Source: a virus
Lineage: Duplodnaviria; Heunggongvirae; Uroviricota; Caudoviricetes
DNA length: 40,602 bases
Direction: 5' to 3' (one strand)
Virus record (IMG/VR): IMGVR_UViG_2541047755_000009
Numbering within the stretch: the stretch's first letter is position 1; each line of letters starts with the position of its first letter. Positions 1,150 through 35,602 of the stretch are shown piece after piece. Position numbers and translations under genes: made by a program. The notes beneath the pieces are model-generated. The model did no database searches, had not been told where the DNA came from, and saw nothing but the letters and a program-made list of their open reading frames with translations.

Positions 1150-1862
1150 GCCTATAAGGCTCTCTTACCAGCCGCGCCCTAACAGGCGCACACGATCTGA
1201 CATTTGCATCCAACTTCGTTACTTACGGCCCGTAAACGGGCTGCCCGGATAGGGAATCGATAACTGCTCTCCCATTTTATCCTCTTCAAGCTGGTGCTTT
1301 ATGTAATCCTGTATCTTCGCCGTGTTCTTACCCACTGTATCGACGTAGTACCCTCTGCACCAGAACTCCCTGTTCCTGTATTTGAATTTCAAATCACCAA
1401 ACTGCTCGTAAAGCATCAGACTGCTTTTCCCTTTCAGATATCCCATAAACCCGGATACGCTCATTTTAGGCGGGATCTCCACAAGCATATGGATATGATC
1501 TGCACAGCATTCAGCTTCCAGAATCCGTACGCTTTTCCACTCACACAGCTTTCTCAAAATACTGCCTATTGCTCTACGCTTCTCTCTGTAGAACACCTGT
1601 CTTCGGTATTTTGGCGCAAAAACTATGTGATATTTACAGTTCCATCGGGTGTGCGCTAAGCTCTTTTCGTTCCCCATTGGGACCCCCTTTTGATTTCTTG
1701 TTTGACACTTGCAGTTGCCAGACCGCAAGGTGTTTTAACAAATCAAAAGGGGTTTTAATAACTGGCTCAAAGCTGAAAGCTTTCCGGAACCCCCAGCCTA
1801 GCTGGGGGTTTTCTGTGCACAAAAAACCCTCTGTAGTAACAGAGGGTTTTGTTCATTCATAG
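1150..1862 (-). mobile_element. IS200 (IS200/IS605 family) insertion sequence; ends approximate
   Basis: tnpA with IS200 hallmark; terminator-like hairpin AAAACCCTCTG..CAGAGGGTTTT plus T-run near 1822-1850 on the tnpA strand; RBS-sequestering inverted repeat CCCCTTTTGATTT / AAATCAAAAGGGGG just 5' of the tnpA ATG; about 0.7 kb overall. Confidence 0.7.
1219..1677 (-). CDS. tnpA: IS200 transposase TnpA (Y1/HUH transposase)
   Basis: MGNEKSLAHTRWNCKYHIVFAPKYRR... is the IS200 TnpA N-terminus; HxH motif (HIHML); about 152 aa from the internal ATG at 1677. Confidence 0.9.
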   Translation of the reverse strand: MGNEKSLAHTRWNCKYHIVFAPKYRRQVFYREKRRAIGSILRKLCEWKSVRILEAECCADHIHMLVEIPPKMSVSGFMGYLKGKSSLMLYEQFGDLKFKYRNREFWCRGYYVDTVGKNTAKIQDYIKHQLEEDKMGEQLSIPYPGSPFTGRK

Positions 1863-3999: not shown

Positions 4000-4296
4000 T
4001 CAAATAGAGAAATAAACACAAAAACAAAAAACAACAGGAACAGCAAAATCCAACAGACTTCCCACATCCCACACGCGTGGATCAAAACCTCCCCACCACG
4101 GCATGTTGATACGTTTCCCTTTCCCAAACTTTTCTATCCAGCGATATTCTGCCTGGGTGTGTTCACGCGCAATGAAGAACGTACAACCGGCTATCGCACC
4201 GTAAGCCCAGTTTCCGGTAAAAATACCAACCAGTACCTGAGCCACAAAAGCGCAAAGCGAGTGAAGAAATGGAGTGACATCAATGCTCTTAATCAT
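4000..4296 (-). CDS. small membrane protein translationally coupled to the tailspike (function unknown)
   Basis: ATG overlaps the tailspike stop (tcATGA); GGGGAAG RBS; 98 aa with 2-3 hydrophobic helices; AT-rich. Confidence 0.55.
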   Translation of the reverse strand: MIKSIDVTPFLHSLCAFVAQVLVGIFTGNWAYGAIAGCTFFIAREHTQAEYRWIEKFGKGKRINMPWWGGFDPRVWDVGSLLDFAVPVVFCFCVYFSI

Positions 4297-6482
4297 GAAA
4301 CTTCCCCATTGGTTGAAAATATGGCTCCTCCAACGCCAAGTGTATTTCGTGTTGTGCTCAACCTCAGAGGGCTGGAGTCAGAATTAGAATATCCTGTAGC
4401 AGAAATAAAAGATCCTCCACTAATAGTCAACTGCGGAACATCGGCTATATCTGAATAAGTTCTGTCAGCAACAGTATTATTTATAGCCACATATGATCCA
4501 AAAAAACTTCTTATTGTTTGGTTTTTAACTTTACTTCCTTCAATGGTTATCCTACTACCACAGTCGGCAATAAATCCTGAATCTGCATCCAGCGTTGCAT
4601 TCATAAAAGAAGCTTCAGATCTCTCTACATCAATCCATCTAATATCTTTTGTGGGATTTGCACCAAATACATGACAAATATTAGAGTTAAACCTTACACC
4701 ATCTTGGAGGTGCATTAATTTTTTTATATCTGTACCCCATAGCCTTGGAAAATTAACAGATGCTCCTGCATGGCAATCAAATCCCAGCTCAGCCCCTGAG
4801 ATATCTACAGCCTTTCCTGAAATAACAGCACCAGTGTCTGCATTAACGGCTGTTCCACAATTGCGCATATCATTACCAGCAACATCAACGCAACCCGCAC
4901 CATCAATACGCACACCAAGTGCACATCCATAAAAACCTTTTTCAATATTTGGTTCAAGGACTTTACCACTTGTTTCTGCATCACTTTCTTCAACGTCATG
5001 TCGTCTTGCATCAACATATGCTGTATGAATGCAGGTTAATCCACGATATGAGCAATGTATAGTTTTATGGTCGCGTATATTAACATTTGAACCATCTCTT
5101 ACATTCCATCCTATATAACAATAGCTTGCACTTGACCCCTGAAAATCTGCTTTAACATTATAAATACAATTAACTGACGCAACCGTACTCTCTGTGCACC
5201 GTTCAAACTTGCTTACAGGCATTGATGCCTTGACATTATTTACCAGTTGCAGGGAAGAGTATCTGCTATAAGAAAAATCACATACGTAATACCCTTCTGG
5301 CATATATGCAGCAACACTTTCCTCATCAGGAGCACATCCGGTATGATATGCACTAATTTTTGCACCAAAACTACCATGAATTCCAACGTAGAACTTTCGA
5401 GCACCTGAATACGGATAGAAATTAAGTTCAGCTTTTTGAGTTACAATAAATGCACAAACATCGCTATCATCTCTATTTTCTTCGATCTGAATAGCAAATA
5501 CAGGACTTTTTGCTGCATCGCAAATGTAAAATAAATACTTGTATTCGTAATACGTTCTAACGATTTTAGTAAACAAACGAGTGTCAGAGAAAACCACTGA
5601 GTCTTCTGATGTTATTTTAATCCAAGACAAATCAACACCTGAACTGAATTCAATTTGATAGTTGATAATATGCCCGGTCTTAATTCTTATTTCGCAGAAA
5701 GCATTACCACCATCCCACATAGGTCTCATTGACTGGGCTGCAATGATTGCATCTTTGAGTGTAGGGTAATCACCCCATTCGCCAACAGTAATAACAAAAG
5801 TATAATATGAGTTAAAAACAGCGGCATTTTTGCCTTTGGATATCAACTCCTTAATCATAAAAATATTATCTTCGTAATCACAAGGAGAAATTATATCCCT
5901 CATTTTGCTTTGAAATGTTCGTTGTCTTGCCCCGCTTCCTGACGGTATAAACCAACCAAAACCACCAACAACCCCGGCGATTGCAGCATCGACATAATTA
6001 CGCATTGAGCGATTATTTACAGCGTCCTGCTCAAATGATGGATCTGCAAGGTTAGAAATTTTGTTTTGCTTTGCATCGTAATATTTTGCAAGCAAAGATG
6101 GTTTCATCAATGCACGTCTGAACCACCCAAAACATCGCTGGATCAGCATCGTCAGGTAGTCAAATGCATCTTCATGAACTTCGGGGAAAAATTTTCCCTG
6201 ATTGCGAAGATCAGTCTCCTGCACCACATCAAGCACACGCTCTATCGTAATTCGCCAGCCAGCAGCAAGCGGCGACGGGAGAACCACTTCACCGCCACTA
6301 TAAGTGCCCGCTCCAGTTACCTTATAACCGGTATCCAGAACCAATTCTGTTACGTTCCCGTTCAGGTCAGACACCTGAACAACCAGGTCGGTTTTTTTGA
6401 AAATACGGAAGGTATACGGAAATGATGTCGTAACGCCGTTACCGGTGTATTCGTTGTGGTCAACTTCGGTTGAGACCGTCAT
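4293..6482 (-). CDS. tailspike with epsilon15-gp20-like N-terminal particle-binding domain
   Basis: N-terminus MTVSTEVDHNEYTGNGVTTSFPYTFRIFKK...HEDAFDYLTMLIQ matches the conserved epsilon15-type tailspike head-binding module as I recall it; long Gly/Asn/Ser/Thr-rich C-terminal part typical of beta-helix receptor-binding domains. Confidence 0.8.
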   Translation of the reverse strand: MTVSTEVDHNEYTGNGVTTSFPYTFRIFKKTDLVVQVSDLNGNVTELVLDTGYKVTGAGTYSGGEVVLPSPLAAGWRITIERVLDVVQETDLRNQGKFFPEVHEDAFDYLTMLIQRCFGWFRRALMKPSLLAKYYDAKQNKISNLADPSFEQDAVNNRSMRNYVDAAIAGVVGGFGWFIPSGSGARQRTFQSKMRDIISPCDYEDNIFMIKELISKGKNAAVFNSYYTFVITVGEWGDYPTLKDAIIAAQSMRPMWDGGNAFCEIRIKTGHIINYQIEFSSGVDLSWIKITSEDSVVFSDTRLFTKIVRTYYEYKYLFYICDAAKSPVFAIQIEENRDDSDVCAFIVTQKAELNFYPYSGARKFYVGIHGSFGAKISAYHTGCAPDEESVAAYMPEGYYVCDFSYSRYSSLQLVNNVKASMPVSKFERCTESTVASVNCIYNVKADFQGSSASYCYIGWNVRDGSNVNIRDHKTIHCSYRGLTCIHTAYVDARRHDVEESDAETSGKVLEPNIEKGFYGCALGVRIDGAGCVDVAGNDMRNCGTAVNADTGAVISGKAVDISGAELGFDCHAGASVNFPRLWGTDIKKLMHLQDGVRFNSNICHVFGANPTKDIRWIDVERSEASFMNATLDADSGFIADCGSRITIEGSKVKNQTIRSFFGSYVAINNTVADRTYSDIADVPQLTISGGSFISATGYSNSDSSPLRLSTTRNTLGVGGAIFSTNGEVS

Positions 6483-6585
6483 GTTAAATCTCCAGATAGT
6501 CGCAGCACCCGTTGCGCCGCATATCTGGTTATTCTATTACCTGTAAAACCACATATGGATAGAAAGACTGTAAATACGAATAGAT

Positions 6586-6602
6586 ATTACCTTTCAGGTA
6601 AT
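6586..6602. promoter_or_regulatory. operator-like palindrome ATTACC-TTTCA-GGTAAT (site A)
   Basis: perfect 6+5+6 inverted repeat abutting a TTGCAA -35-like hexamer upstream of the 6678 gene. Confidence 0.55.
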
Positions 6603-6640
6603 TTGCAAAACGTGCTGGATAGCAAACAAATTATTTGATA

Positions 6641-6656
6641 CTGTATAAATATACAG
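6641..6656. promoter_or_regulatory. LexA (SOS) box
   Basis: taCTGTataaatatACAGtt, i.e. CTGT-N8-ACAG with AT-rich spacer, near-perfect to the enterobacterial LexA consensus; about 20 nt upstream of the GGAGAAG RBS / ATG at 6678. Confidence 0.8.
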
Positions 6657-6677
6657 TTATTGCATGGAGAAGATAAG

Positions 6678-6935
6678 ATGCAGCAGTATCACTATCCACT
6701 GGAAGACGGATTTACCGAAAGGATTCACACGCCGGGAGGCGTCAGGTCACTGGTGGAGGGATCGCACTTGATGAAATTACTCCGGGATCTCGATAAGGAT
6801 GGATTTAATGTCGATGGCCCACTTGCCGAACTGACTGCACTGATTAACTACGTCACCAGCTCACAGATGTCTATGCGGGATCTGCAAACACATCTCGACT
6901 ATTGTGCCGAACAATTACGAAAACAAACCAGATAA
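6678..6935 (+). CDS. small antirepressor-like protein (stand-alone copy of the Bro-N protein C-terminal domain)
   Basis: 85 aa; RBS GGAGAAG; about 75 aa align with the C-terminus of the 7249-7935 product (LMKLLRDLDKDGFNVDGPLAELT...RDLQTH versus LLMNLLNQLQEDGHDVSGAAAELT...RDIQTH). Confidence 0.65.
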   Translation: MQQYHYPLEDGFTERIHTPGGVRSLVEGSHLMKLLRDLDKDGFNVDGPLAELTALINYVTSSQMSMRDLQTHLDYCAEQLRKQTR

Positions 6936-6965
6936 GGTTTGCAATTGCCAAGTGGAGTGCTTATA

Positions 6966-6982
6966 TTTACCTTTGCGGTAAA
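6966..6982. promoter_or_regulatory. operator-like palindrome TTTACC-TTTGC-GGTAAA (site I) inside a GGAGTGC / GCACTCC hairpin
   Basis: same half-site family; sits in the 310-nt untranslated gap between the two antirepressor-like genes. Confidence 0.45.
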
Positions 6983-7248
6983 TTTACATCGCACTCCTCT
7001 TGTGCCATAGTAATCGGGCACTGGCAAAATCCAGTGCCGGGATTGGCGTCCCGAGTTACTACAGAGGCACATATGCCGCATAAGCGGTTTTTTTTATGTG
7101 TAAAGCGCACCTATTCTATGGTGGGCTGTGTGGGGGCACCGAAAGGTGCGCCGGGTCCTTTGTAGCCGGTTACGCCAACCCTGCACAGTTCACCACCAAC
7201 CGATTGGCGTCGGTAGTGGTGATTAACCTAACTACAAAGGTGATCACT

Positions 7249-7935
7249 ATGACTGCTAACGTAACCCCATCTGTTTTTCATTTTGAATCAGAAGCAACCA
7301 TTCGAGCCATTGTTATTGATGGAAATCCTTGGTTTGTTGCCAAAGACGTTATTAAAGCTCTTCAACTGACAAACCCCACTATGTCAATAAAATCTCTTGA
7401 TGATGATGAAAGGGCTAAATTTAACTTAGGCCGTCAAGGCGAAACCAATATTATCAACGAGTCAGGCCTCTACACACTGATCCTCCGCTGCCGCGATGCA
7501 GTAACACCAGGCACTATCCCCTACCGCTTTCGCAAATGGGTTACAGGTGAGGTTCTTCCTCAGATCCGCCGCACCGGAAGTTACATTAAAAACTCGCTCC
7601 CGCAGGAAGAACGCATAAAGATGGTTGCCGACCAGGTTGCAAACGCCACAGCATCAGCAGTGATGCAGGCAATGAAGATAGAGAACAAAACCTACAGCGC
7701 CCCACTGAAGCCCGGCTACCGCAGCCTGATTCATTCGCCGTCTGGTGTTCTCGGCCTGACGGAGAACTCACTGCTGATGAATTTGCTGAACCAGTTACAG
7801 GAAGACGGGCATGACGTATCGGGCGCGGCGGCGGAGCTGACTACCATGTTCTGCTACATCGTCGGTGTGAGCAAATGCCTGCGTGATATCCAGACGCACG
7901 CGGAGTACATCAACGACAAGGCAGGGTTCTTCTGA
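7249..7935 (+). CDS. phage antirepressor with Bro-N domain
   Basis: Bro-N signature IRAIVIDGNPWFVAKDVIKALQL; AAGGTGA RBS before ATG 7249; C-terminal domain shared with the 6678 gene. Confidence 0.8.
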   Translation: MTANVTPSVFHFESEATIRAIVIDGNPWFVAKDVIKALQLTNPTMSIKSLDDDERAKFNLGRQGETNIINESGLYTLILRCRDAVTPGTIPYRFRKWVTGEVLPQIRRTGSYIKNSLPQEERIKMVADQVANATASAVMQAMKIENKTYSAPLKPGYRSLIHSPSGVLGLTENSLLMNLLNQLQEDGHDVSGAAAELTTMFCYIVGVSKCLRDIQTHAEYINDKAGFF

Positions 7936-7946
7936 CAGAACGGCGG

Positions 7947-7972
7947 CACAGGGATGTGCCTTTAAATAATTC
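7947..7972 (+). terminator. terminator-like hairpin after the Bro-N gene
   Basis: GGCACA-GGGA-TGTGCC followed by TTTAAATAATT. Confidence 0.45.
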
Positions 7973-8007
7973 TGTACAGATTGCAGACCGGGGGTGAATA
8001 GCGTACT

Positions 8008-8024
8008 ATTACCTTAAAGGTAAA
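8008..8024. promoter_or_regulatory. operator-like palindrome ATTACC-TTAAA-GGTAAA (site B) with promoter-like TTGCAG / TACTAT hexamers
   Basis: sits between a putative -10 and the GAGGAGG RBS of the 8050 gene. Confidence 0.5.
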
Positions 8025-8049
8025 CCATGTGTTTACATGAGGAGGAGAT

Positions 8050-8259
8050 ATGGGATTTTGGTTCGCTCGTACAAAAACGAGGGATAATGCACCCAGCCCT
8101 CAGGCAAAAAATGCAGAAGTTCCGGCGTCAGCGCAGGTTAACAAGCGTGGTGGTGTGTATATCTCATCACAGCAAATTTCTGAGCTTCCTGAGGTTAAGG
8201 AGATGCGTCGTCTCGCTGCTGCAATCGTTAAACAGGATCTTGCCACTGTAAGGAAATAG
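8050..8259 (+). CDS. hypothetical small hydrophilic protein, first gene of accessory cassette
   Basis: strong RBS GAGGAGG then ATG; 69 aa; stop TAG overlaps the GTG start of the next gene (taGTG). Confidence 0.6.
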   Translation: MGFWFARTKTRDNAPSPQAKNAEVPASAQVNKRGGVYISSQQISELPEVKEMRRLAAAIVKQDLATVRK

Positions 8260-9125
8260 TGTTGTTAGCTCTTCTAATTATCCCCATTCTGGTTAGTGGT
8301 TATATTATGATAACCGCTAACCAGTATCATTATTTCCGTTTATACCGACATGAAGGCCAGCTTCTTTATATGAAAGTAGCTGCATTAGGTACATATTGCC
8401 TTGTTGCTTCGGTAATAATTGCCGCATTTATAAAATATAAATATCCTGATTTTCACCTAGTTCACGATATGGTGGAAACTTTTAATGTAACGTCAAAACC
8501 AGAAACAGATAGAATTTACATGTGGCTGCTTCTTCTCTCAGCCACATCCATTTGCTTCTCTTTGTGTTATGTGTCTGTTGTGTGGGTGAAAGATTTTCTT
8601 CTTGGTTGTTTTTATAAACGTGATATTTATGAGCAAAAAACAGAGGCAATGAAGGCCAGAGTACTGCGAAAAACTTACTCGCAAGGTTCTTTAGACTTAC
8701 TATTGCTTGATGCTATTGAATCGGATCCTAAACGACCAATGCTGATTACTTTATCATCAAACAAAGTGTATGTTGGAATAATAAATGGTTCTGGTGAACC
8801 AACGGAAAATCAGGGTCCGCATCAGCACATATCTTTTGTTCCTTTAATGTCAGGATACAGGAACAAAGACAACTTATCTGTCACATTCACTAATGCTTAT
8901 CCAGGAGAAATACAGGTCAAGCGGACTGCAGCAATAAGAGGAATTAGCAGAAAGAAAGTGCCAGGACTTGAGATCATGGTGTCTATTGACGAAATAAGTT
9001 ATATATCATGGTTTGATTTTGAAGTATATAAAGCAACAAATAACAAAGTAGAATCCAGGGGGCACGTTATTCGTGTTACCAAAAATGGAAGAAATATATA
9101 TCAAAGAAATAGCAAAAAAGAATAG
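8259..9125 (+). CDS. membrane-anchored protein, 3 N-terminal TM helices plus about 180-aa soluble domain (unknown function; exclusion/defense candidate)
   Basis: 288 aa; GTG start coupled to upstream stop; visibly AT-rich codon usage unlike the neighbouring phage genes; intrinsic terminator directly downstream. Confidence 0.65.
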   Translation: MLLALLIIPILVSGYIMITANQYHYFRLYRHEGQLLYMKVAALGTYCLVASVIIAAFIKYKYPDFHLVHDMVETFNVTSKPETDRIYMWLLLLSATSICFSLCYVSVVWVKDFLLGCFYKRDIYEQKTEAMKARVLRKTYSQGSLDLLLLDAIESDPKRPMLITLSSNKVYVGIINGSGEPTENQGPHQHISFVPLMSGYRNKDNLSVTFTNAYPGEIQVKRTAAIRGISRKKVPGLEIMVSIDEISYISWFDFEVYKATNNKVESRGHVIRVTKNGRNIYQRNSKKE

Positions 9126-17704: not shown

Positions 17705-20175
17705 CAGAATCCCCCAACAGTAAGGCGAGGAATAACGGCAAGAACAGACAGCGGCAACGGATCAAGCTGACGGATTTTTACACGTCCGTTTTTGCCCCAG
17801 TTACTGTCCAGTTTCACTTCTACTTTTCCGGTAGCATCATCAACAGGATCATCGTAGAACTCGAATTCACGCTGTGGATATTCGTACCATTTACCGCCGG
17901 GCGTAGTCGCCCAGATGCCGCGACTGGCATTCACAACCAGAGTAACGGAGGGGATCACCTGTTTTTTGTCCAGCAGCGTTTCCTGTCCGTTAATGTTGAT
18001 ATCCAGTGTTTCGAATTCAGCAGTTATTGGCAGGCCGATGTGCACTACAGCCCCCGGAGATTCCAGCGTGACGGCACCTCTGGAAACCACTTTCTGTGGT
18101 TCCACGTTCGCATCAGAGAGAATGTTTACGGTCTGGCCTTCAAGATGAGACAGGCCTCCAAATGTCCGGCGCGCCATCTGCCAGTTCGTGGTGGCCACAT
18201 TCCTGAGGGATGGCGGGACGTTCCTGTTAGCACGAACCACTACAGCGGTATTGCTGGTTACAGAAATAATGTCGCAACGTAATTCTTTTGACACTTCATC
18301 GCCAGTACCAGGATCAGTTCCGGTATAAGGGAACTGTAGTTGCGCGCCGACATCACTACTGGTGAAGTACGCACCACCAGAAACACTGATTGTATATTCT
18401 GCACGGTAATCCCATTCACCAGAACCACCAGTGATGGTCATCGTTCTGTCAGACGTATTTCTTCCATCATAGCTAAGGCCAGAATCAACAAAGAAAGCAT
18501 CTTCATCGCTGGTAAATAAACGGCTGGACAGTCGCTCGATGTATCTCACTGTTTGCCCGTTAACGGTTCGGTTAATGACGAAATACACCGCATCTTCATT
18601 GCCTTCGCTGATACTGCATGTGCTTTCATATTTTCCGGTACTGGACTGTGGTGCCCATGCAAAAACCTGTTGATCACGCAAATAGGTCATCACCAGTAAT
18701 TTACCGTCATCACGAATGCAGAAGGCGCTGGAGTAAGGGACAATAGAGAAGCACCAGTCAACAATGCTGTGCTTCTGAAAAAGATGATTGGCAAGGATAG
18801 TAAGGTCGTTCCCCTGATAGCCGTCAACATCGAATGAGTAGGCCAGATCACGGACAACACTGCCTTTCTCCTGTACGAACAGAGCAATATTCGCCACGGC
18901 AATTGGTGGGACATTGCTCGAGCCATTTGATCCCTGAGAGCTGAATGCAAATGATGATGGGGTTAACACTTTGTTCTGGTCGCCGGTGATGACGTACTCA
19001 CCTCCGGAAGTCAGCGCCACCAGCGAACCAACATCAATCAGGTGGCGGATCTCATTAACCTGACGCCCGGCATAGGTGTAGATAATTCTGTCGTCATCCT
19101 GCGTAGGATTGCTTTTGCCAAAATCCTTATAATCCCCGGTACGGCTGGCCCAGATAGTCTGAGGGAACGCAGTCGATGCGGCGAAGTAAAGACGCTGTTG
19201 ATAATAAACAACAGTGCCAGGATAACCATTAACACTGTTCCAGGCATATTTAGCCCATTTATAGCTGGCATTATCCTCGCCAACTACCTGCGAAGGGATA
19301 TAGGAAATCACCTCAGCAGTTGCAGTAGTGCCATTTACAGCAGTTATACGGGCAATGCCAAAACCACTGTGCAGATACTCCCACTCAATGCCAGTATCAT
19401 CATCACCGGATCCGCCCCAGCCATCCCATGATGTGCCTTCTGTATGCGAAGGGCGCAAAGTGCCTGTTTTGCCTGCTGTAACGGCTCGATAGTAGTTACT
19501 GTCTGCACGGCGAATATCGCCAATCGACGTACTCTTACTGGTTTCCCATACCGGCACTGAATCCACTGCAGGCTGTTCCAGATAGAACAATTTGCCTACC
19601 TGCTCCGCGCCAAAAATAGAGGCGCTTGCCGTTAACGTAATTGTCCCGGTGCTGGCGCTGGCATAAACCGTCACTGACTCGTCAATATTGATATCTTCAA
19701 ATGGCCCGTTCTTCGTTACCACATCAACCAGTTGCCAGTTGTCATGAGCATATCGGCGCAACTCTTTCGGCGGGTATGCCGGGTGAACCAGCGTAAGCAC
19801 GTCGGCGCTTTGCGTGAATTTAATTCGGAACAGATCGGCTTCAGTATATGGCGTGGCAATTTCATAAATAACATTGCTGCTGTTCAGCACCAACGCACCA
19901 TCTTTGATAACGCGCATGTACTGGTGTCCGAACTCCAGAGCATAGGTCTGAACCGTCGAGAACTGGAACGGGATCAGGCGGCATTTCCGATTTGGGTATT
20001 TGGCGGCACCGACAAAACGCGTACCAGGTCGATTCTCAACGCCGCCATACTGCCGCACGATAAAGTTATCGCACTTGCGCAATGCCACCTGGTACTTCGC
20101 CATGTCGATACGACCGTACAACGACGGTCCAATCTCACCACCGGCAAAGCTGGGCTGGATCCAACTGATAGCCAT
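17704..20175 (-). CDS. tail protein (tube/hub candidate)
   Basis: 823 aa; between head genes and ejection proteins. Confidence 0.55.
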   Translation of the reverse strand: MAISWIQPSFAGGEIGPSLYGRIDMAKYQVALRKCDNFIVRQYGGVENRPGTRFVGAAKYPNRKCRLIPFQFSTVQTYALEFGHQYMRVIKDGALVLNSSNVIYEIATPYTEADLFRIKFTQSADVLTLVHPAYPPKELRRYAHDNWQLVDVVTKNGPFEDINIDESVTVYASASTGTITLTASASIFGAEQVGKLFYLEQPAVDSVPVWETSKSTSIGDIRRADSNYYRAVTAGKTGTLRPSHTEGTSWDGWGGSGDDDTGIEWEYLHSGFGIARITAVNGTTATAEVISYIPSQVVGEDNASYKWAKYAWNSVNGYPGTVVYYQQRLYFAASTAFPQTIWASRTGDYKDFGKSNPTQDDDRIIYTYAGRQVNEIRHLIDVGSLVALTSGGEYVITGDQNKVLTPSSFAFSSQGSNGSSNVPPIAVANIALFVQEKGSVVRDLAYSFDVDGYQGNDLTILANHLFQKHSIVDWCFSIVPYSSAFCIRDDGKLLVMTYLRDQQVFAWAPQSSTGKYESTCSISEGNEDAVYFVINRTVNGQTVRYIERLSSRLFTSDEDAFFVDSGLSYDGRNTSDRTMTITGGSGEWDYRAEYTISVSGGAYFTSSDVGAQLQFPYTGTDPGTGDEVSKELRCDIISVTSNTAVVVRANRNVPPSLRNVATTNWQMARRTFGGLSHLEGQTVNILSDANVEPQKVVSRGAVTLESPGAVVHIGLPITAEFETLDININGQETLLDKKQVIPSVTLVVNASRGIWATTPGGKWYEYPQREFEFYDDPVDDATGKVEVKLDSNWGKNGRVKIRQLDPLPLSVLAVIPRLTVGGF

Positions 20176-21952: not shown

Positions 21953-21972
21953 GTGGGTCTGTTACGACCCAC
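21953..21972 (-). other. stem-loop immediately 3' of the major capsid gene
   Basis: 7-bp stem GTGGGTC / GACCCAC with 6-nt loop, followed by the RBS of the next gene; may stabilise or attenuate the transcript. Confidence 0.4.
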
Positions 21973-21988
21973 AGGTTAATAACAGGCG

Positions 21989-26315: not shown

Positions 26316-26392
26316 GTGGCATTAGCTCAGTTGGACAGAGCAACCGCCTTCTAAGCGGTTGGTCGCAGGTTCGAATCCTGCATGCCACGCCA
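26316..26392 (+). tRNA. tRNA-Arg, anticodon UCU (reads AGA)
   Basis: 77 nt cloverleaf: acceptor GTGGCAT / ATGCCAC, D-stem GCTC / GAGC with A20, anticodon stem ACCGC / GCGGT, loop CTTCTAA, T-arm GCAGG-TTCGAAT-CCTGC, G73, encoded CCA. Confidence 0.9.
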
Positions 26393-26477: not shown

Positions 26478-26555
26478 ACAGCAGGACGCCATTGCGATGA
26501 CTTCATGCTGTAAACCAGTACAGCCACGGAAGGCATAACTCATTGCTTCCAGTTC

Positions 26556-34497: not shown

Positions 34498-34728
34498 TCA
34501 TGAGTAGAAGAAGTATGCCAGTTCTGCTTTTGAGCGCAGCCATTGTCTTGTTTTACAGGCTTTAAAAAGCCCATTCATCAATACTTTACCTGGCATTTTG
34601 CGCTTACCTGTTAAGTGAGTCTGGATATAGTGACTCGTCGTTCCGGCTTCCTGTGCGAAGGCTTCACGCTCATCCGGAGTAAGTGCAAGCCAGTGCTTTT
34701 TGAAATCGAAATGTCCGTTATCGCTCAT
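34498..34728 (-). CDS. Cro-like HTH regulator
   Basis: 76 aa; first gene of the rightward early operon, divergent from the repressor; HTH-like segment AFAQEAGTTSHYIQTHLTGKRKM. Confidence 0.55.
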   Translation of the reverse strand: MSDNGHFDFKKHWLALTPDEREAFAQEAGTTSHYIQTHLTGKRKMPGKVLMNGLFKACKTRQWLRSKAELAYFFYS

Positions 34729-34763: not shown

Positions 34764-34828
34764 TTCACCCATAAGGTAACAAAAATCAAGGATAGTTACC
34801 TATGAGGTGCATTTACCTGTTGGGTAAT
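34764..34828. promoter_or_regulatory. immunity-region operators (three sites) with divergent promoters
   Basis: TTCACC-CATAA-GGTAAC, GTTACC-TATGA-GGTGC and TTTACC-TGTTG-GGTAAT within the 154-nt gap; on the cro strand a TTGTTA-N17-TATTAT promoter-like pair overlaps the first site. Confidence 0.65.
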
Positions 34829-34882: not shown

Positions 34883-35467
34883 ATGAAAAGTATCCAGGAC
34901 GTCCGCAGGCAAAATCTCAACGACTTGATCGACCGTGAATTCAATGGTGTTCAGACGCGGATGGCAGAAAAACTTGGAACTCAGGCAAATCTGGTAAACC
35001 GCTGGGCTCTTGGCAAGAAGGTTATCGGCGACCAGGTTGCACGAAAAATTGAAGCTGCCGCCAATAAACCCCGTAACTGGCTTGATATTGATCGCTCGCT
35101 TTCTCAGGAGGGTTTTCAGCCTGTCGGCCCGAGCGATATAGGTCAGCTGGCGGCTCACAACCTGGAACGCTGGATGAGCGAAAGCCGCGACCTTTCAACG
35201 CAGGGAAAACTACACCGCGCATCCGGCGTCGCCCAGGTGACAATCAGCCGCCTGTTAAACAATGAGGTCAGCGTTTCCATTTCCACCCTGGAGAATGTTG
35301 CATCCGCATTCGGGCGTCACGGCTATGAATTACTGATTCACCCGCACGACCCTGCGACCATCAACTATGATCGCTCGCGCTACGCATTGTTACCCGAAAC
35401 CGAGAAAGCAAAGATCGAAAGTTACATTGAATTTGTCATCAACCAGAACGAAAAAAACAAACAATAA
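34883..35467 (+). CDS. prophage repressor, dual HTH, no S24 peptidase domain
   Basis: XRE-type HTH QTRMAEKLGTQANLVNRWALGKK plus a second HTH-like segment; no Ser/Lys autocleavage module at 194 aa; divergent from the Cro-like gene across the operator cluster. Confidence 0.7.
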   Translation: MKSIQDVRRQNLNDLIDREFNGVQTRMAEKLGTQANLVNRWALGKKVIGDQVARKIEAAANKPRNWLDIDRSLSQEGFQPVGPSDIGQLAAHNLERWMSESRDLSTQGKLHRASGVAQVTISRLLNNEVSVSISTLENVASAFGRHGYELLIHPHDPATINYDRSRYALLPETEKAKIESYIEFVINQNEKNKQ

Positions 35468-35523: not shown

Positions 35524-35602
35524 ATTACCTAATGGGTAATTTTTTTAACTCATATCTATTGACATCAAACCAGATACGCATAATTATTACCTCAACGGTA
35601 AC
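35524..35602 (+). promoter_or_regulatory. promoter for the plus-strand early operon bracketed by two operators
   Basis: ATTACC-TAATG-GGTAAT (perfect), TTGACA -35, TAATTA -10-like hexamer about 16-17 nt later, then ATTACC-TCAAC-GGTAAC. Confidence 0.6.

Follow-up and report, generated by a model that had tools for sequence, protein, structure and literature searches.

A probable anti-immunity region with two antirepressor genes, one Rep-binding domain and two modes of control in a phiV10-like Escherichia coli prophage

THE QUESTION RAISED BY THE LOCUS

How might a prophage respond to DNA damage when its repressor has no domain with which to cleave itself, and why should two genes standing side by side end in the same protein domain? 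Both questions are raised by positions 6586-7935 of IMG/VR record IMGVR_UViG_2541047755_000009, a viral DNA of 40,602 nucleotides (nts) that is called the window throughout. Judged by its sequence, the window is an Escherichia coli prophage of the phiV10/epsilon15 type (genus Uetakevirus): it matches phiV10, TL-2011b, vB_EcoP_ZX5 (ZX5 below) and other epsilon15-like podoviruses of the genus as well as several hundred E. coli chromosomes, and the order of its genes is that of phiV10. The locus is very probably an anti-immunity region, in which two antirepressor genes built on one shared Rep-binding domain answer to different controls, the first, ant, to LexA and the second, which encodes a Bro-N domain fused to an Ant-like domain (Bro-N::Ant), to the RNAs C4 and isrK. 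Taken singly, the modules are known; that they are paired around a single Rep-binding domain seems to be undescribed, and the literature yielded no description of adjacent genes sharing a Rep-binding domain, of the three-way RNA covariation in this lineage, or of an operator network reaching such a locus. That one repressor-binding domain should serve two control logics in adjacent genes is a modest new point, and it makes the locus a compact model in which to study how a phage merges DNA damage and other inputs into a single decision to lyse its host.

THE LexA BOX, ant AND THE REPRESSOR

Three features make up the first of the two controls:

6639-6658: LexA box TACTGTATAAATATACAGTT, with the core CTGT-N8-ACAG (CTGTATAAATATACAG) at 6641-6656
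6678-6935, plus strand: ant, small antirepressor gene of 85 amino acids (aa), with a GGAG Shine-Dalgarno sequence at 6666-6669
34883-35467, plus strand: rep, prophage repressor gene of 194 aa, without an S24 domain

An earlier reading of the letters by themselves (the sequence-only reading) had placed a LexA box upstream of the 85-aa gene, and the box stands up to scrutiny. The 20-mer TACTGTATAAATATACAGTT agrees with the E. coli LexA consensus TACTGTATATATATACAGTA at 18 of 20 positions, is the sole site in the window within three mismatches of that consensus (none of 100 shuffles gave one), and ends 21 nts before the ant ATG at 6678. Its position is kept column for column in an alignment with phiV10, SPC32H and Enterobacter phage Tyrion, the flanks having diverged, and a Klebsiella relative carries a box with one core mismatch; the relatives compared span four host genera. 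Two further CTGT-N8-ACAG matches, at 21959-21974 and 26508-26523, have GC-rich spacers and differ from the 20-mer at more than three positions; they were rejected as LexA boxes and probably have no role in LexA binding. phiV10 conserves the two matches as well.

The product of ant aligns over residues 2-84 with chain E (“Anti-repressor protein”) of Protein Data Bank (PDB) entry 5D50 (phmmer E=1.4e-46), an entry titled “Rep-Ant complex from Salmonella-temperate phage”, and is 87% identical to the Ant protein of SPC32H (86.7% by tblastn). It also matches phrog_450. The domain has a crystal structure but no model in Pfam or NCBIfam; Pfam, NCBIfam and PDB gave no match besides SPC32H Ant, and Pfam no DinI- or Tum-like domain. 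Of 5426 complete E. coli genomes, 529 (about 1 in 10) carry the locus of ant and its LexA box, and the RefSeq records sampled annotate ant as a “hypothetical protein”. Correct annotation of the gene would show which E. coli prophages induce through LexA and Ant rather than through repressor cleavage.

Rep, the presumed target, was claimed in the sequence-only reading to lack the S24 domain, and the profile searches agree. Pfam recognizes two helix-turn-helix (HTH) elements, HTH_3 at residues 106-147 and a weak YdaS-type HTH at 21-61, and gives no Peptidase_S24 match even at E<=0.1, nor is there one in NCBIfam. Rep aligns along its full length (residues 1-190, E=4e-42) with 5D50 chain A and with 5D4Z (“Repressor”), and this solved repressor has no S24 domain. 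It is 42% identical to SPC32H Rep and 100% identical to phiV10 Rep, and ZX5 has the same Rep; NLVNRW, a putative recognition-helix region, is conserved between the Rep proteins of the window and SPC32H. The HTH_3 match falls in the stretch that was solved separately as 5D4Z (residues 89-190 here), which in SPC32H Rep we take to be a tetramerizing and Ant-binding domain rather than a DNA-binding one, the DNA-binding domain presumably being N-terminal. Tetrameric Ant binds two Rep dimers and breaks the DNA-binding tetramer (PMC9638917).

On these alignments, the Ant and Rep of the window are orthologs of those of SPC32H, itself a Uetakevirus whose GenBank record annotates ant and rep at the same genomic positions. 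The deposited genomes of SPC32H and SPC32N differ by exactly two bases, one of which turns the CTGT of the LexA box into CTTT. Kim and Ryu are said to have reported in 2013 that Rep stays uncleaved during the SOS response, that Ant inactivates Rep and that LexA controls ant; the box mutation of SPC32N reportedly leads to constitutive Ant synthesis, and the SPC32H authors are said to have described Ant as structurally distinct. A review likewise refers to Kim & Ryu 2013 for an Ant that depends on SOS and LexA and inhibits the repressor (PMC7380047). The orthologous proteins, the matches to 5D50 and the SPC32N box mutation together bear out the earlier proposal of LexA-controlled antirepression of a non-cleavable repressor. 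The systems it had cited for comparison, Gifsy and 186 Tum, give way to SPC32H, whose Ant and Rep are closer. Comparison of this prophage with SPC32H shows Ant to be much better conserved than Rep, its target (87% vs 42% identity), which hints that Ant may recognize a conserved Rep surface and could act across heteroimmune relatives.

The same evidence bears on a conventional alternative, in which RecA stimulates Rep to cleave itself and so to lose its activity, the LexA box having either no role or one at the divergent tailspike operon. The box does lie in a divergent intergenic region, with the tailspike gene starting at 6482, and the sigma-70 scan did not pinpoint a promoter for ant. However, Rep lacks S24 and aligns throughout with the solved S24-less repressor, the box is 21 nts from the ant ATG as against 156 nts from the tailspike ATG, and the box mutation is one of only two differences that set SPC32N apart from SPC32H, all of which makes self-cleavage of Rep barely credible. 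In the preferred reading, LexA-controlled antirepression, host LexA bound at 6639-6658 would keep ant off in the lysogen, by extrapolation from the orthologous SPC32H. DNA damage would bring about LexA self-cleavage and synthesis of the 85-aa Ant, which would then bind the non-cleavable Rep and remove it from its operators, releasing lytic growth.

A SECOND ANTIREPRESSOR WITH THE SAME C-TERMINAL DOMAIN

The gene that shares its C-terminal domain with ant follows on the same strand:

7249-7935, plus strand: second antirepressor gene, 228 aa, with a Bro-N domain at aa 18-104 and an Ant-like domain at aa 147-224

The Bro-N domain (PF02498) is recognized with 72.3 bits against a Pfam cut-off of 25.6 (E=5e-20, residues 18-104); PADLOC returned nothing for the protein. 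Its relationship with the 85-aa product, noticed in the sequence-only reading, is confirmed by 32 identities over 78 residues (41%, E=2e-16) with residues 147-224, and the C-terminus also aligns with 5D50 chain E (E=1e-13). When residues 140-228 were modeled with AlphaFold (predicted local distance difference test score, pLDDT, 80), 5D50 chains G and H were the top two solved matches in Foldseek, with a probability of 1.00, template modeling (TM) scores of 0.61-0.76 and root-mean-square deviations of 2.8-3.8 Å. The suggestion that the shared module contacts the repressor fits 5D50, in which the whole 86-aa Ant is the Rep-binding unit, as well as the match of the Bro-N C-terminal model to the Ant chains of that entry.

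The experiment closest to this protein comes from ZX5, whose ORF4, an “anti-repressor” that agrees with the window protein residue for residue from 73 to 228, moved the phage toward lysis when overexpressed beside the same Rep: prophage titre fell from ~10^9 to 10^6 and lysogens went down ~1000-fold (PMC9782041). This lowering of lysogeny took place with an identical Rep, and the protein behaves as an antirepressor. That 2022 study of a near-identical phage overlooked the small ant gene; it mentions neither ant nor the LexA box, isrK or C4, does not relate the C-terminus to SPC32H Ant, and a search of its text for “SPC32H” found no occurrence (PMC9782041).

Might the Ant-like C-terminus nevertheless be only an oligomerization module, with the Bro-N protein targeting something else, or the repressors of other prophages, and not the resident Rep? 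Ant is a tetramer in 5D50 (PMC9638917), a fusion to AntA keeps only the last ~55 residues of the domain, and the C-terminus is just 41% identical to the resident Ant whereas Ant orthologs remain 87% identical across Reps of 42% identity. Set against this are the ~1000-fold effect in ZX5, obtained with an identical C-terminus and an identical Rep, the 10 invariant and 11 near-invariant positions common to the Ant and Bro-N C-terminal subfamilies, and the occurrence of the C-terminal subtype as a stand-alone protein of 97 aa in prophages with a 194-aa HTH protein in the repressor position. A role in oligomerization only is, on balance, unlikely. Still less probable, to the point of being a marginal option, is that the fusion inhibits Ant through mixed tetramers or as a decoy and so damps induction. 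Both proteins contain the tetramer-forming domain, and a natural recombinant of the two subtypes exists (P0142); yet the near-identical ZX5 protein, when overexpressed, led to lysis and not lysogeny, and the related cassettes of Gifsy-1 and P1 encode activating antirepressors. The reading retained here is that Bro-N::Ant is an antirepressor directed at Rep, and the Ant-like domain looks like a portable Rep-targeting module.

The domain has a wider distribution. Other guaA-integrated Uetakevirus prophages have an extra Ant-like gene between the methyltransferase and integrase genes (L009 10001-10531; L010 10001-10294), encoding either the stand-alone 97-aa protein or the AntA (PF08346) fusion, and the HTH protein in the repressor's position of such prophages has the same length as Rep. 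TL-2011b and HEMP4 have three Ant-like places. Among the complete E. coli genomes, 470 carry the DNA for the Bro-N C-terminus. A word-indexed search with the C-terminal domain gave mostly fragments and hence undercounts full-length fusions. In phiV10, the Bro-N gene is frameshifted inside the Ant-like domain (~4290-4450; record 19551-19700), leaving an annotated 194-aa protein and a 29-aa open reading frame (ORF), so that phiV10 probably lacks a functional second antirepressor.

THE isrK AND C4 RNAs

The sequence-only reading had listed the Bro-N gene together with the LexA box under SOS induction. The gene is preceded by a promoter region of its own and by an isrK-like RNA and a C4 RNA with covarying pairing; the two RNAs and their pairing had been overlooked, as had a palindrome with 13 copies in the window, three of them in the locus. 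With isrK and C4 in front of it and C4 pairing to its leader, the Bro-N gene belongs to a cassette of the P1 immI or Gifsy-1 isrK-anrP type and is not LexA-driven. Its elements are:

6983-7011, plus strand: candidate isrK promoter TTTACA-17-CATAGT, extended -10 TG at 7003-7004, predicted start ~7018
7018-7094, plus strand: isrK-like small RNA (Rfam RF01394, isrK Hfq-binding RNA, 74.2 bits vs gathering score 50)
7043-7049: isrK decoy site b1, UUGGCGU
7059-7067: isrK decoy site a1, CUACAGAGG
7075-7094, plus strand: isrK intrinsic terminator
7114-7200, plus strand: C4 antisense RNA (Rfam RF01695, 79.5 bits vs gathering score 45, model positions 1-87 of 87)
7157-7165: C4 segment a', CCUUUGUAG, unpaired in the second hairpin loop of the C4 consensus structure
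7172-7178: C4 segment b', ACGCCAA, unpaired in a single-stranded junction
7204-7210, plus strand: Bro-N leader target b2, UUGGCGU
7232-7240, plus strand: Bro-N leader target a2, CUACAAAGG

Three phages share the TGCCATAGT stretch of the candidate isrK promoter without any change, and the Rfam isrK model begins at 7018. Segment a' of C4 complements both 7232-7240 in the leader and 7059-7067 in isrK, and b' complements 7204-7210 and 7043-7049; the complements in the leader are exact. The a2 target overlaps the Shine-Dalgarno sequence AAGGTGA of the Bro-N gene (7236-7242), seven bases before its ATG at 7249. What lends this pairing weight is that it changes in concert among relatives. In phiV10, the first element (a) has a one-base deletion that is alike in C4, leader and isrK, and in Tyrion the second element (b) reads AGACCAA in C4 and UUGGUCU in both targets, a 2-nt change. 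Exact complementarity and covariation across phages were used to judge the pairing in place of whole-length duplex energies, which 57 of 500 shuffles matched for C4-leader and 19 of 500 for C4-isrK.

C4 would thus pair through its two unpaired segments with the Bro-N leader, cover the Shine-Dalgarno sequence and block translation, and isrK, which carries the same two target sequences, would act as a decoy for C4. That Bro-N::Ant is a second antirepressor, blocked by C4 and relieved by IsrK, is supported by family membership, by the covariation and by the ZX5 experiment. The arrangement of isrK and C4 upstream of an antirepressor gene is also found in phiV10 and Tyrion, isrK, C4 and Bro-N together are annotated in APSE phages, and 235 phage records contain the RNA cassette. 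Since SPC32H has neither the RNAs nor the Bro-N gene, the cassette is best seen as an add-on of the E. coli and Enterobacter branch.

No separate upstream ORF of the icd or orf45 type terminates where the Bro-N gene begins. From an ATG at 7096, a reading frame (7096-7248, plus strand) continues through C4 and, in frame, into the Bro-N gene, and C4 contains a 15-aa ORF (7119-7165, plus strand); neither the 7119 nor the 7096 ORF resembles Gifsy-1 orf45 in position.

OPERATOR-LIKE PALINDROMES

The 15-bp palindrome TTACC-N5-GGTAA, with at most one mismatch, occurs at 13 sites in the window as against 0.78 expected, and no shuffle reached 13. The sites start at 6587, 6967, 8009, 25972, 29126, 29144, 32420, 32482, 34428, 34765, 34813, 35525 and 35587. 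They sit between the cro-like gene and rep, just 3' of rep, and where other transcription units begin or close by, and from these positions we infer that they are putative Rep operators. Those that bear on the two antirepressor genes and on the immunity region are the following:

6587-6601: palindrome TTACCTTTCAGGTAA, upstream of the LexA box and abutting TTTGCA (6602-6607)
6938-6967, plus strand: promoter-like TTTGCA-18-TATATT directly after the ant stop codon, by consensus match only
6967-6981: palindrome TTACCTTTGCGGTAA, overlapping the -10/+1 region of the 6938-6967 promoter and abutting the -35 of the isrK promoter
7981-8023, plus strand: promoter-like TTGCAG-17-TACTAT with its palindrome, preceding the genes for 69 and 288 aa, by consensus match only
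8009-8023: palindrome TTACCTTAAAGGTAA, starting at the last T of the -10 of TTGCAG-17-TACTAT
34765-34827: operator cluster between the cro-like gene (34498-34728, minus strand) and rep, with sites at 34765 (one mismatch) and 34813
35525-35601: operator pair 62 bp apart, 3' of rep, flanking the PL-like promoter TTGACA (35559-35564) -17- AATTAT

Several promoters have in common that the proximal palindrome starts at the last T of the -10 hexamer. Exact copies number 10 in SPC32H and 8 in phiV10, in equivalent places, and SPC32H too has two palindromes in its cro-rep intergenic region. The palindrome beside ant recurs in SPC32H, Tyrion and the Klebsiella phage and is degenerate in phiV10, and the TTTGCA -35 element after ant is conserved, together with the palindrome at 6967-6981, in phiV10 and Tyrion. 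Pairs spaced by 62 bp (32420/32482 and 35525/35587) keep the same spacing in phiV10 and SPC32H. The sites probably form a dispersed network of Rep operators, reminiscent of P1 C1, and the 62-bp spacing would suit a tetramer bridging two sites. As one of these Rep-operator-like palindromes overlaps the promoter region of the isrK-C4-Bro-N cassette, transcription of the cassette probably also depends on the state of Rep.

HOW THE TWO CONTROLS MIGHT MEET

No terminator was found between ant and isrK, and LexA-derepressed transcription of ant would therefore run into isrK. This invites a relay, from SOS induction through ant-isrK read-through, titration of C4 and translation of Bro-N::Ant to positive feedback and a commitment to lysis. 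The read-through RNA from the derepressed ant promoter would carry the a1 and b1 decoy sites, the cassette's own promoter would also be gated by a Rep operator, and the same Rep-binding domain would be used twice. The relay is a tentative proposal, and a doubtful one, that goes well beyond the assignment of two antirepressors to two controls.

Several points weigh against that assignment itself. Binding of Ant to Rep is carried over to this prophage across 42% Rep identity, and the palindromes are assigned to Rep by their positions only. For the second gene, the matches of the C-terminal model to 5D50 have modest E-values (0.012-0.031), the full-length Bro-N model (pLDDT 70) found neither 5D50 nor any other significant PDB match in Foldseek, and the ZX5 ORF4 experiment was an overexpression of a protein tagged with glutathione S-transferase (GST), without a binding assay (PMC9782041). 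A sigma-70 scan of 6400-8300 gave no promoter over the LexA box at its threshold; the conserved hexamer TTTGCA (6602-6607), proposed by eye only, is a candidate for the -35 element of the ant promoter.

THE SURROUNDING PROPHAGE

The two genes open a short block on the plus strand, and the features around it and elsewhere in the window are these:

6482, minus strand: start of the tailspike gene
6678-9125, plus strand: short gene block, beyond which the virion operon continues on the minus strand
8050-8259, plus strand: 69-aa gene (phrog_5739), 3' of the Bro-N gene
8259-9125, plus strand: 288-aa gene (phrog_3630, hydrophobic N-terminus)
~34.5-35.6 kb: immunity region, with the integrase gene at the right end of the window

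A block conserved in five phages, 6531-6559 on the minus strand, contains TAGAAT (6536 to 6531) ~50 nts upstream of the tailspike start codon; this block may hold the promoter of the tailspike and lysis genes, which would point away from ant. The 69-aa and 288-aa genes have no Pfam or PADLOC match. Because ZX5 has other genes in their place, and phiV10 and SPC32H none, 8050-9125 looks like a slot for variable accessory genes (morons).

A guaA-type gene adjoins the integrase gene in related prophages, as was reported for ZX5 (PMC9782041). The prophage contains a tRNA-Arg gene with anticodon TCT (26316-26392, plus strand), which is also present in phiV10 and SPC32H. To the left of the lysis genes lies a full-length STnc490 Hfq-binding small RNA (1687-1810, minus strand; 146 bits), presumably host DNA flanking the prophage since it is absent from phiV10 and SPC32H.

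COMPARISON WITH KNOWN SYSTEMS

For the RNA-controlled gene, the isrK-orf45(STnc1160)-anrP locus of Gifsy-1 shows the same order of promoter, IsrK with its terminator, C4-like RNA and antirepressor gene (PMC4825925). There, IsrK activates AnrP translation in trans, read-through of the IsrK terminator yields the mRNA, and IsrK pairs with the C4-like region, the published compensatory mutants being G28A/C162U and G31A/C159U (PMC4825925). These mutant pairs appear to fall on the equivalent b1:b' pairing, given a 3-nt numbering offset that is assumed and not checked against the Gifsy-1 sequence. Unlike Gifsy-1, the window has no coupled upstream ORF of the orf45 type, its C4 is directed at the antirepressor gene's own Shine-Dalgarno sequence, its C-terminal domain has the SPC32H-type Ant fold, and its cassette stands just 3' of a LexA-controlled gene with no terminator between them.

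The immI region of P1 and P7 (c4-icd-ant; Citron & Schuster 1990, cited in PMC7313666) has a C4 of the same Rfam family. There too, unpaired a' and b' pair with repeated up- and downstream targets, the downstream target covering a ribosome-binding site, and concerted changes in RNA and target distinguish related phages (PMC7313666). In contrast to immI, the window has no icd, its antirepressor is unrelated to P1 Ant, and it belongs to a podovirus with a different repressor.

A combination of the two controls is known from coliphage N15, whose two antirepressor proteins are, to our knowledge, unrelated to each other. AntC is under SOS control through LexA, and a small processed RNA governs the separate anti-immunity locus immA (Mardanov & Ravin 2007; Ravin et al. 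1999, both cited through PMC4488713 and PMC3121763). Whereas N15 has two separate loci, the genes in the window are adjacent, co-oriented and share the Rep-binding domain. With 186 Tum and the Gifsy proteins GfoA and GftA, ant has in common that a small LexA-controlled antirepressor encoded outside the immunity region targets a non-cleavable repressor (PMC3121763); no sequence relationship with the Ant of the window was detected, and the resemblance is functional only.

It is SPC32H that comes closest, with its published Ant/Rep system (Kim & Ryu 2013, J Virol 87:11775; Kim et al. 2016, PNAS 113:E2480; PDB 5D50, 5D4Z). The two phages share the genus, an Ant of high identity and a Rep alignable over its full length, the placement of ant between the tailspike gene and the virion operon, a LexA box in the same place, and TTACC-N5-GGTAA beside ant and around rep. 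The LexA-gated Ant switch is thus established biology in this phage genus and not new. SPC32H has ant alone, with no isrK, C4 or Bro-N paralog found, whereas the window adds to it a second, riboregulated gene with the Ant fold and two further genes.

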